Assembly: GCF_050320075.1 (NCBI RefSeq)
Contig: NZ_CP190019.1
Direction: 5' to 3' (one strand)
Origin: Escherichia coli
Lineage (GTDB): Bacteria > Pseudomonadota > Gammaproteobacteria > Enterobacterales > Enterobacteriaceae
Length of the DNA stretch: 64,000 nt
In this document: piece by piece, positions 12,001-15,000 of the stretch
How the letters are laid out: each line of letters opens with the position of its first letter
Numbering within the stretch: position 1 is the stretch's first letter
Position numbers: made by a program

Positions 12001-15000
12001 GTAACGCTTTACGCTGGCAGCCAGGCGTGCGGCACGTTGCGGTGCTTCCCAGCGGTCGTTACTGTAATTAGCCACTTCAGCCAGATAATCCTTTTCAAGT
12101 TTTTCAGCCGTGTAGCACCTGCCGCCTAAAAAAAGCCGCATGGCCTCCCTGGTTTTATTTCTCACATATCATCCCTCATTAATGCTAATGTACGCATACA
12201 TTAGCATTAACATACTGACAGTAACAAGCGGCGGATTTACGTCTGGATAACGTAAATGATTGCGGTATACAGGCCAGTCGGTCAGATTTTCAGCCGGGCC
12301 TGTTCCTGCAGCAGTTCCAGATGATATGCAGCAATAGCGTTTACCACCCCTGCCGCCATCCGTGCGTCGGCGATCGCTGAGTGTGCCTGCCCTTCCCAGG
12401 TCAGTCCGGCCTGGCTGGCAGCACAGGCCAGTGAAATCGTGCCATAGCGGTTGGTGGCCCCATAATATCCTGCAGCCAGCTCCATCGCACAATATACCGT
12501 CATTTCTTCCAGCCAGTCAGCCGGATCGCTATGTGCGGCCGCAGTCTGTTTCAGAATGCGGATGTCGAACCGGGAATTAAAGATAATTACTGGTCGATCT
12601 CCGATTGCATGCCGCAGTTGCCGCGCCACATCTGTCCATGATGGTGCGCCGCAGAGAGCCTGCTCACTGATACCATGCACAGCGGCGGCCTGCGCCCCGA
12701 TGGCGACCGTGGGCTTCAGTCTGGTTTCAAATACCACCTGACCGGCCGCATCGGTCAGGCCGATTTCCAGGGCTTCCGCGGTATTATCCAGTCCTGTCGT
12801 TTCAGTATCCAGAAAGAGTGGTGCCAGACTCAGCCAGTCATATGCCTGCCGTGCCATCCGGCCACTGGTGCTGTTTAGTCGGGATAAAACGGAAAGCCGC
12901 TGGCCAGCCAGCTGTTGTTTACTCGTCAGAGGGCGTTTCTCACGCATCGGAACACAGTCTGCAATTCGGTATACAGCGAACCTGCCACCATAACTATTTT
13001 TATACCACTTAACCGGCTCAGCACCGGGGGCTGGCTTCATTCTGAATTCATCGCGCAGACGTCCTTTCGAGAAACACCTGTCTTCGGCAATCGCCTGCGC
13101 ACGTCTGGTGACCAGCTCATCATTATTCATGGTTCTTGCATCTCCGTCAGACGTTTTTATATCCGGACAGCCCCTCTATGGCCACTTCTGTACAGTATGC
13201 AATACTCGCAGGATATACACTTTTCCCCACTGGCTGTCGACCTCATAAACCAGAACAAAATGCGGGTGAATAACCAGTTCCCGGGTACCTTCCACACGAC
13301 CGTTGCGGCCTTTATACGGCTGCCCGGCCAGGTTGCTGGCTGAATAACCAATCCGTTCGTCCAGTTCAATGGCGGCTATCAGGTTCTGCTCCGCAATGTA
13401 CTCACGAATGCGCTTCCTGTCCTGGCTGGCCAGCATGGTCCAGAATATCTCCATCATTTACCGGCGACTTTCCTGCTCATTTCATCCCGCCATGCAGCAG
13501 CGGAAGATTCGACCATGTCATGGGGAAGTAGGGGAGCCCGCAGAATTCGGAAAAAATCGTACGCTAAGGTTTTCCGGGCATCCGTAAGGGCCGAAACTTC
13601 CCGTCTTCCAGTCTGCGGCTCTGCCGCCAGACGTAATCGCCGGTTAGGTTGATGTGCTCCCAGCCCAGCGGCGACAGGAATTGCAGCAGCTCGCCGTCCA
13701 CCGGCTTGCCGGCCTCGACCAACCCCTGGGTGGCGCGTTCCAGGTACACCGTGTTCCACAGCACGATAGCCGCCGTCACCAGGTTGAGGCCGCTGGCCCG
13801 GTAGCGCTGCTGCTCGAAGCTCCGATCCCTGATTTCCCCAAGGCGGTTGAAGAACACCGCCCTGGCCAGCGAGTTGCGCGCCTCACCTTTGTTCAGGCCG
13901 GCATGCACGCGGCGGCGCAGTTCAACACTTTGCAGCCAGTCCAGGATGAACAGCGTGCGCTCGATCCGGCCCAGCTCGCGCAGGGCCACGGCCAGTCCGT
14001 TCTGGCGCGGGTAGCTGCCGAGCTTGCGCAGCATCAGCGAGGCGGTGACGGTGCCCTGCTTGATCGAGCTGGCCAGGCGCAGGATGTCGTCCCAGTGGGC
14101 ACGCACGTGCTTGATGTTCAGGGTGCCGCCGATCAGCGGGCGCAACGTCGGGTAGGCTTGCACGCCCTGCGGCACGTACAGCTTGGTTTCGCCGAGGTCG
14201 CGGATGCGCGGCGCGAAGCGGAAGCCTAGCAGGTGCATCAGGGCAAAGACGTGATCGGTGAAGCCGGCCGTGTCGGTGTAGGGGTCTGACGCTCAGTGGA
14301 ACGAAAACTCACGTTAAGCAACGTTTTCTGCCTCTGACGCCTCTTTTAATGGTCTCAGATGTCCTTTGGTCACCAGTTCTGCCAGCGTGAAGGAATAATG
14401 GCCGAGCATATTGATATGTCCGTGGCAAAGCGGGGAGAGGCGTGCGATATCTTCATCATTCAGTGTTTCACCCTGCGCCCGGAGATGATCCAGGGCTGCC
14501 TGCATATAAATAGTGTTCCATAACACGACGGCGTTAGTGACCAGCCCCAGTGTGCCCAGTTGATCTTCCTGACCGTCGGTATATCGTTTTCTTATCTCAC
14601 CTTTTTGACCGTGACAGATGGCTCTGGCAACGGCATGGCGACTTTCTCCCCGATTAAGCTGGGTCAGAATGCGCCGGCGGTAATCTTCATCATCAATATA
14701 ATTAAGCAGATACAGCGTTTTGTTGATGCGCCCCACTTCAATGATTGCCTGAGTCAGTCCGGAAGGACGTTCACTTTTCAGCAATGAACGGACCAGCACT
14801 GAAGCCTGTACTTTGCCCAGCTTCAGGGAGCCAGCGGTCCGGATCATTTCGTCCCACTGAAGGACTATTTTTCGGGGATCTGATTGCCCTCTGGCAATAT
14901 CATTCAGCACGCCATAGTCGGCATCATGGTCCATTCGCCAGAAAACCGAAGCACCGGCATCAGCCAGGCGTGGAGAAAACTGGTATCCCAGCAGCCAGAA

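Follow-up and report, generated by a model that had tools for sequence, protein, structure and literature searches.

The yacB locus

The window analyzed here, a stretch of 64,000 nucleotides from Escherichia coli contig NZ_CP190019.1 (assembly GCF_050320075.1), belongs to a ColV-type IncFIB/IncFIC (F18/F24:A-:B1) conjugative plasmid. It carries on its minus strand an intact open reading frame (ORF) for a toxin of the ParE family, yacB (parE-I; 13176..13457), preceded by the last codons of the antitoxin gene yacA (parD-I; 13454..13530, minus strand), which stop at the right inverted repeat (IRR) of Tn1721 (13531..13568, plus strand), a tetracycline-resistance transposon of the Tn3 family.

Counted from its first ATG, yacB encodes 93 amino acids, and the start chosen in RefSeq is the second ATG, at 13454, for a product of 92 residues. 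The protein belongs to the ParE_toxin superfamily of Pfam (PF05016, E=1.6e-16, residues 4-92 of 93 aligned) and scores 30.2 bits against NCBIfam TIGR02385 (RelE_StbE), above the cut-off of 27.9. Among solved structures, the nearest is that of ParE2 from E. coli O157 (PDB 5cw7, E=8e-8, full-length alignment). At the DNA level the gene is 100% identical to yacB of the ColV plasmid pVM01, and it is annotated as yacB (WP_097309154.1) in plasmids with an intact locus. The ORF, the Pfam match and the identity to annotated yacB uphold the claim of an earlier reading of this DNA (the original prediction) that the 93-residue toxin frame is intact. Compared with the YacB of IncI-type plasmids, 3 of the 93 residues differ, all conservatively (I27M, N42S and V89A); the allele used for this comparison comes from an IncI-gamma/K1 plasmid, as a proxy for pJIE512b, the plasmid that was experimentally tested. 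A 631-bp query with the toxin gene and its flanks matched 2,274 PLSDB plasmids. Their hosts are, with few exceptions, Escherichia, Salmonella or Shigella, most of the plasmids are conjugative, and the gene is annotated in them as yacB, "type II toxin-antitoxin system toxin YacB".

The antitoxin remnant consists of two nucleotides of codon 65, codons 66-89 and the stop, and its 77 nucleotides are 100% identical to the 3' end of yacA in pVM01. Its frame terminates ...LPHDMVESSAAAWRDEMSRKVAGK; the TGA stop and the ATG of yacB share nucleotides in the sequence ATGA, the overlap that had been predicted. The number of surviving codons had been put at about 20, and there are indeed 20 if one counts from an internal Met, or 24 plus the stop in all. 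In the alignment with pVM01, identity is 100% from the middle of yacA codon 65 onward, and upstream of that point the window has transposon sequence; homology to yacA stops at 13530, exactly abutting the inverted repeat. The repeat itself (GGGGAGCCCGCAGAATTCGGAAAAAATCGTACGCTAAG) is an exact 38/38 match to that of Tn1721, as proposed for position 13531, and occurs as a single copy in the window. The arrangement of repeat, remnant and toxin gene is not due to chance, because the matches are exact and common to dozens of public records.

Upstream of yacB, codons 66-89 are all that persists of the 89-residue antitoxin gene. The ribbon-helix-helix domain of YacA is absent from the window as well as from the whole of plasmids pEC21-2 and p14406-FII. 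The former is collinear with the window over 45 kb at 99.9% identity, and the latter is its closest relative, at 100% identity.

Identity of the intact module

Comparison with intact homologous loci, as called for by the original prediction, showed what normally precedes the toxin gene. In the intact loci of pVM01 and of IncI plasmids, yacA lies directly upstream of yacB and overlaps it, and yacC follows. The YacA protein of an intact locus is an 89-residue ribbon-helix-helix protein, MAQVNMSLRIDAELKDAFMAAAKSMDRNGSQLIRDFMRQTVERQHNTWFRDQVEAGRQQLERGDVLPHDMVESSAAAWRDEMSRKVAGK. The gene yacC (12282..13130 in the window, minus strand) encodes a DnaQ-like 3'-5' exonuclease according to its matches to NCBIfam families of the DnaQ/DEDDh type, and it is a conserved neighbor 3' of yacAB in both intact and disrupted loci on IncF and IncI plasmids.

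A type II toxin-antitoxin module, ParDE-I, was characterized from the IncI1 plasmid pJIE512b, its toxin being listed in GenBank as YacB (Kamruzzaman & Iredell 2019, PMC6614396). With its own promoter, the operon fully stabilized unstable vectors; arabinose-induced ParE-I caused a longer lag phase, fewer viable counts, SOS induction and filamentation resembling that caused by ciprofloxacin; and co-expression of ParD-I neutralized the toxin, the allele tested being that of IncI1 (PMC6614396). The catalytic residues of RelE (R61, R81 and Y87) are absent from ParE-I (PMC6614396). Because the promoter and ribosome-binding site (RBS) published for ParDE-I (PMC6614396, Fig. S4) match the region just 5' of yacA both in pVM01 and on a plasmid of the IncI type, YacAB and ParDE-I are one and the same locus.

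Transposition of Tn1721 into yacA

Next to the IRR, at 13526..13530, the window has the pentanucleotide TACTT as read along yacA (plus strand, AAGTA), one copy of a target-site duplication. Only this right-hand copy is held by the window, and plasmid pCombat13F7-2 has TACTT at both junctions. A query for the reciprocal junction, composed of the 5' part of yacA through TACTT joined to the inverted repeat, gave one contiguous match in at least seven plasmids; CP019247, CP074034, MW390538, MK416151 and CP127298 have both the reciprocal and the right-hand junction. In pCombat13F7-2 the order on the left is RepFII, yacA codons 1-66, TACTT, the left inverted repeat (IRL, GGGGGAACCGCAG...) and a gene for a methyl-accepting chemotaxis protein (MCP), a typical component of Tn1721. 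Then follow about 37 kb with resistance genes, tetR-tetA-pecM and a partial transposase gene (tnpA), and on the right the IRR, TACTT, yacA codons 66-89, yacB and yacC. A perfect 5-bp direct repeat is a hallmark of Tn3-family transposition. Since both halves of yacA flank a region bounded by Tn1721 ends with a perfect TACTT repeat, a true transposition of Tn1721 into yacA codon 65/66, with a 5-bp duplication, has been shown. The antitoxin gene was thus cut by a transposon end, as had been suggested: homology to yacA ends at the repeat, and the missing 5' part adjoins the other repeat in pCombat13F7-2.

In the plasmids with both junctions the N-terminal YacA fragment retains its promoter and is annotated as a 79-residue CopG ribbon-helix-helix protein. 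The fragment in pCombat13F7-2 (NZ_CP019247.1, 2326-2565) is made up of codons 1-66 and 13 residues read from the IRL. Relative to pVM01, this 5' yacA allele has the substitutions S7N, D11N, L14I and D16N, and there is a 2-bp deletion in the -10 region.

Neither the IRL nor the 5' part of yacA was found in the window, in the whole of pEC21-2 or in the rest of p14406-FII. Because both are missing from the window and its closest relatives, the left half was lost after the insertion. The resistance region of p14406-FII ends at an IS26 beside pemIK and RepFII, and the loss would be explained most simply by an IS26-driven rearrangement.

Expression signals of yacB

The main question then is why an intact toxin gene is tolerated next to a destroyed antitoxin gene. 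The promoter, operator and RBS that lie 5' of yacA are the only ones described for the module, and their sequence is absent from the window, the whole of pEC21-2 and the rest of p14406-FII. A consensus scan of the 2.2 kb from IS26 to yacB found no sigma-70-like site on the yacB strand. As for translation, the only element of yacB resembling a Shine-Dalgarno sequence is AGGA, at 13-16 nucleotides from the two candidate starts; yacA has GGGGUG at 4 nucleotides. This poorly spaced AGGA, together with the ATGA overlap of stop and start, indicates that translation of yacB would normally depend on ribosomes finishing yacA. The internal ATG of the remnant has no Shine-Dalgarno sequence (the best duplex, of -2.5 kcal/mol, is 15-19 nucleotides away), and for this reason the remnant is probably untranslated. 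The transposase frame that enters from upstream has its stop inside the inverted repeat, about 107 nucleotides upstream, which is too distant for translational coupling.

Taken together, these features suggest that yacB is probably a silent, promoterless orphan toxin gene, a scar of the Tn1721 insertion into yacA. The insertion at codon 65/66 put yacB and the last 24 yacA codons on one side, and the promoter, the RBS and the first 66 yacA codons on the other, about 37 kb off in the complete versions that survive. The lineage of the window has since lost the left half altogether, presumably through rearrangement by IS26. Stripped of promoter, operator and coupled upstream translation, yacB would have little expression at most. 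The supply of antitoxin and the synthesis of toxin would have been removed together, the condition that would let such an insertion survive, and a silent yacB would therefore allow an unmutated growth-arresting toxin gene to ride on a widely transferred plasmid without its antitoxin. The founding cell may have been carried past the decay of the antitoxin by incomplete post-segregational killing, by tetracycline selection or by a co-resident yacAB plasmid.

Several points weigh against this interpretation. We infer the silence of yacB from missing signals alone; the promoter scan was a simple consensus search, so that weak promoters or read-through from the tnpA fragments or IS26 are possible, and one weak terminator-like hairpin is the only one upstream of yacB. 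Toxicity was shown for the ParE-I of pJIE512b (IncI1), and the IncF allele of the window is three residues from the IncI-type allele. The homologous locus of the Shigella plasmid pINV has been reported to be inactive (PMC9455713). Finally, the lineage is young, as its near-identical sequences show, and the absence of inactivating mutations is therefore little evidence for or against selection.

Alternative explanations

The original prediction held that, if the antitoxin was truncated, the toxin is inactive or neutralized in trans. The protein sequence encoded by yacB is undegraded, and a loss of expression signals would, as far as it can be judged from the DNA, be the better account of why the toxin is tolerated. 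For neutralization in trans, YacB would be made here and kept harmless by YacA from a second replicon, such as an IncI1 or IncF plasmid with yacAB, so that the IncF plasmid would depend on its partner; we consider this quite unlikely. There are hosts in which it could operate: strain PI7 has a junction-bearing IncF plasmid together with the IncI1 plasmid pYLPI7c, whose yacAB is intact and whose YacA has the same accession as that of pVM01 (WP_000079941.1). The 5' part of yacA that is missing from the window occurs in 1,363 genomes, about 25% of 5,426 complete E. coli genomes, and cross-neutralization is plausible because the YacA proteins of IncI and IncF type are only two residues apart. However, the assembly of strain EC21 has only a chromosome, pEC21-2 and an IncX3 plasmid of 46 kb, the last without yacA, and no second yacA or yacB or similar antitoxin gene was found in the window, pEC21-2, the rest of p14406-FII or the IncX3 plasmid of EC21. 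Chromosomal yacA is very rare (19 places in the 5,426 genomes), and to our knowledge K-12 has no yacAB, which is consistent with this rarity. The junction-bearing plasmid pKW21 is listed among transconjugants in the K-12 recipients E. coli C600/J53 (PMC10295773). Neutralization in trans thus happens in some hosts, but an obligatory rescue is unlikely, as judged from two individual strains (PI7 and EC21), from the split of yacA matches between chromosomes and plasmids, and from pKW21.

It is also unlikely that YacB is made at a low, tolerated or even useful level, by read-through from the side of the transposon and IS26 combined with weak initiation. The upstream tnpA fragments are co-oriented with yacB, no strong terminator is predicted between IS26 and yacB, and the ORF is intact in all 75 records that have the junction. 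ParE-I has been reported to raise tolerance of antibiotics or heat, and induction of the cloned toxin raised survival of antibiotic treatment according to the legend of supplementary Fig. S5 (PMC6614396). On the other hand, there is neither a promoter-like site nor a properly spaced Shine-Dalgarno sequence, and an intact yacB is equally expected of a young neutral relic. Plasmid pEc355340_NDM-5, in which yacA was truncated independently, has a nonsense mutation, Q24*, in yacB, which hints that unprotected yacB is a liability or at best dispensable, and not an asset. There is a slim chance that read-through gives a low dose of an unneutralized gyrase poison of the ParE type, resulting in antibiotic tolerance or in dependence on the YacA of IncI1 plasmids, a form of cross-plasmid addiction.

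Very improbable is the notion that the 24 C-terminal residues of YacA continue to be made and to neutralize the toxin, as a peptide of 20 residues or as the tail of a 101-residue ORF at 13454-13759. The reading frame is open across the inverted repeat into the remnant, and in antitoxins of the ribbon-helix-helix ParD and RelB types it is the C-terminal part that, as a general statement, binds the toxin (PMC6614396). Yet the peptide would have to start at an internal ATG that has no Shine-Dalgarno sequence, with no promoter found, and the longer ORF is an alternative frame of the GC-rich tnpA fragment with a GTG start, no family match and no annotation in RefSeq; we therefore rejected it as a gene. 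Short unstructured antitoxin fragments are usually degraded. We give next to no credence to the remaining suggestion of the original prediction, a toxin-first operon with the true partner downstream, for example the exonuclease-like YacC. It is true that yacC always lies 3' of yacB, but every intact locus has the 89-residue yacA upstream, overlapping yacB, an upstream antitoxin neutralizes the toxin experimentally (PMC6614396), and the transposon breakpoint inside yacA is clean in the window. The toxin-first order is thus refuted by the intact loci.

Distribution of the junction

The right-hand junction is present in at least 73 PLSDB plasmids (200-bp junction probe, full coverage). With a 461-bp probe that spans the inverted repeat, the remnant and the whole of yacB, and with an E-value cut-off that only full-length matches could pass, it was found in 75 records and in 73 of the 5,426 complete E. 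coli genomes. All 75 are at least 99.8% identical without insertions or deletions, and in every one the yacB ORF is intact. The sole variant is one missense change in YacB, S75N, shared by a sub-lineage; of the three plasmids of it that were checked (NZ_CP058343.1, NZ_CP128791.1 and NZ_CP074121.1), at least two carry NDM judging by their names. The sources include humans, pigs, chickens, ducks, pigeons, dogs, cats, cattle, yak, mink, wolf, musk deer, bullfrog and water. The orphan toxin ORF has thus stayed intact in the whole of a plasmid lineage that is successful and evidently recent. A literature search linking yacA and Tn1721 found no paper that describes their junction.

In two records, from musk deer and wastewater, the junction and yacB are chromosomal (NZ_CP128596.1, 950958-951418, and NZ_CM129859.1, 935619-936079), which implies integration of part of the plasmid.

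Neighboring mobile elements and genes

Of Tn1721 the window has about 750 bp of the right end, namely the IRR and about 715 bp of tnpA, and not a complete transposon; fuller versions are those of pL65-2 and pCombat13F7-2. The 3' fragment of tnpA (13564..14280, minus strand) has its stop codon inside the IRR, and a Tn2/Tn3 end interrupts it on the 5' side. Within it, the ORF 13564..14238 ends ...LRMPGKP*, and RefSeq labels the fragment in identical records as a TnAs1 family transposase pseudogene missing its N-terminus. The part of a Tn2/Tn3 element that follows (14281..15616, minus strand) comprises a 38-bp inverted repeat (14281-14318) along with the 3' portion of the element's own tnpA, and is cut by IS26. 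Its ORFs 14314..15267 and 15307..15621 correspond to the C-terminus of a Tn3-family TnpA, labeled "Tn3 family transposase" in the RefSeq record of pEC21-2. The position of the Tn2/Tn3 repeat inside the tnpA fragment of Tn1721 shows that Tn2 inserted into the right end of Tn1721, and it was later cut by IS26 at 15617.

IS26 (15617..16435, plus strand; 14-bp terminal repeats at 15617-15630 and 16422-16435) is annotated as such in the collinear pEC21-2. In the multiresistance region many copies of IS26 follow this first one, whose transposase gene is directed away from yacB. Relative to the otherwise near-identical pEC21-2, this copy differs near 16078-16081 by a substitution and the deletion of 1 bp, which break the transposase frame, so that the ORF ends at 16192 instead of about 16384. 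The break could be a true inactivating mutation or a sequencing error. The toxin gene thus has three nested mobile elements at a distance of no more than 2.1 kb.

About 2.5 kb downstream of yacB-yacC, a 3.8-kb gene at about 6790-10611 (minus strand) is annotated in collinear plasmids as an "anti-phage transmembrane ATPase" and is surrounded by ColV/ColM/ColB immunity genes. The 3' end of yacC includes a 74-bp stretch (12347-12419) with about 80% identity to a segment of pVM01 about 200 bp upstream of yacA (about 2565-2638), and a 130-bp stretch just 5' of yacA has 83% identity to a region beside the CPBP/pemI genes near RepFII in pEC21-2 and p14406-FII. Both may be conserved replicon-flanking repeats. 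Farther away, at 45216-64000, the window departs from pEC21-2 and follows p14406-FII (NZ_MN823988.1), with parM, a group II intron, blaTEM-1 and IS91. The window is thus a mosaic nearest to p14406-FII, without two insertions that are found in NZ_MN823988.1.

Other disrupted loci and comparison with known systems

The yacAB locus has matches in 2,565 PLSDB records; in a sample taken from across this set, truncations mostly delete yacB and keep yacA, and this bias is the asymmetry expected of a toxin-antitoxin pair. Losses on the antitoxin side are few and are dominated by the yacA-Tn1721 junction. In pEc355340_NDM-5 (NZ_OP046713.1, 2480-2940) the cut in yacA, at about codon 41, was made by another Tn3-family end, an independent event. 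In the IncI-gamma/K1 plasmid pMB5876 (NZ_MK070495.1, 1-2760) a TnAs3 lies at yacA codon 5; the promoter is removed, both genes are kept, and yacA is re-annotated from an internal Met6.

The components described here, YacAB/ParDE-I, Tn1721, Tn2 and IS26, are all known and annotated in public records. Their combination provides an example of a resistance transposon that disables an addiction module from the antitoxin side without killing its host, the toxin gene having been separated by the insertion from the only expression signals that the operon has. The junction marks a clonal, internationally spread IncF lineage that combines virulence and resistance, and it could serve as a lineage marker. 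If the toxin is expressed, the locus would be relevant to antibiotic tolerance and to the way in which plasmids interact; if it is not, the locus would be a matter of routine mobile-element archaeology.

Among known systems, the window shares with ParDE-I/YacAB the locus itself, the promoter and RBS published for it being found in intact relatives, and the downstream neighbor yacC. It differs from ParDE-I in that a break after codon 65/66 has truncated the antitoxin gene and neither promoter, operator nor RBS is left, so that the two genes are no longer a working pair. With respect to the PaaA2-ParE2 system of E. coli O157 (5cw7), ParE2 is the toxin of solved structure nearest to YacB, but sequence identity is low. 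PaaA2 is an antitoxin without a DNA-binding domain; searches of YacA against solved structures returned marginal matches only, and no similarity to any solved ParE2 partner was detected. Of Tn1721 the window retains the exact 38-bp IRR and a tnpA that ends in it, to which relatives add the IRL, the MCP gene and tetR-tetA-pecM, whereas in the window everything beyond the right end has been replaced by Tn2 and by resistance segments bounded by IS26. The homologous yacAB locus of the Shigella plasmid pINV/pWR100, also of IncF type, has decayed in the opposite direction: there YacB is frameshifted and YacA is left as an orphan antitoxin (PMC7354431), whereas in the window the antitoxin gene is destroyed and the toxin gene is intact.

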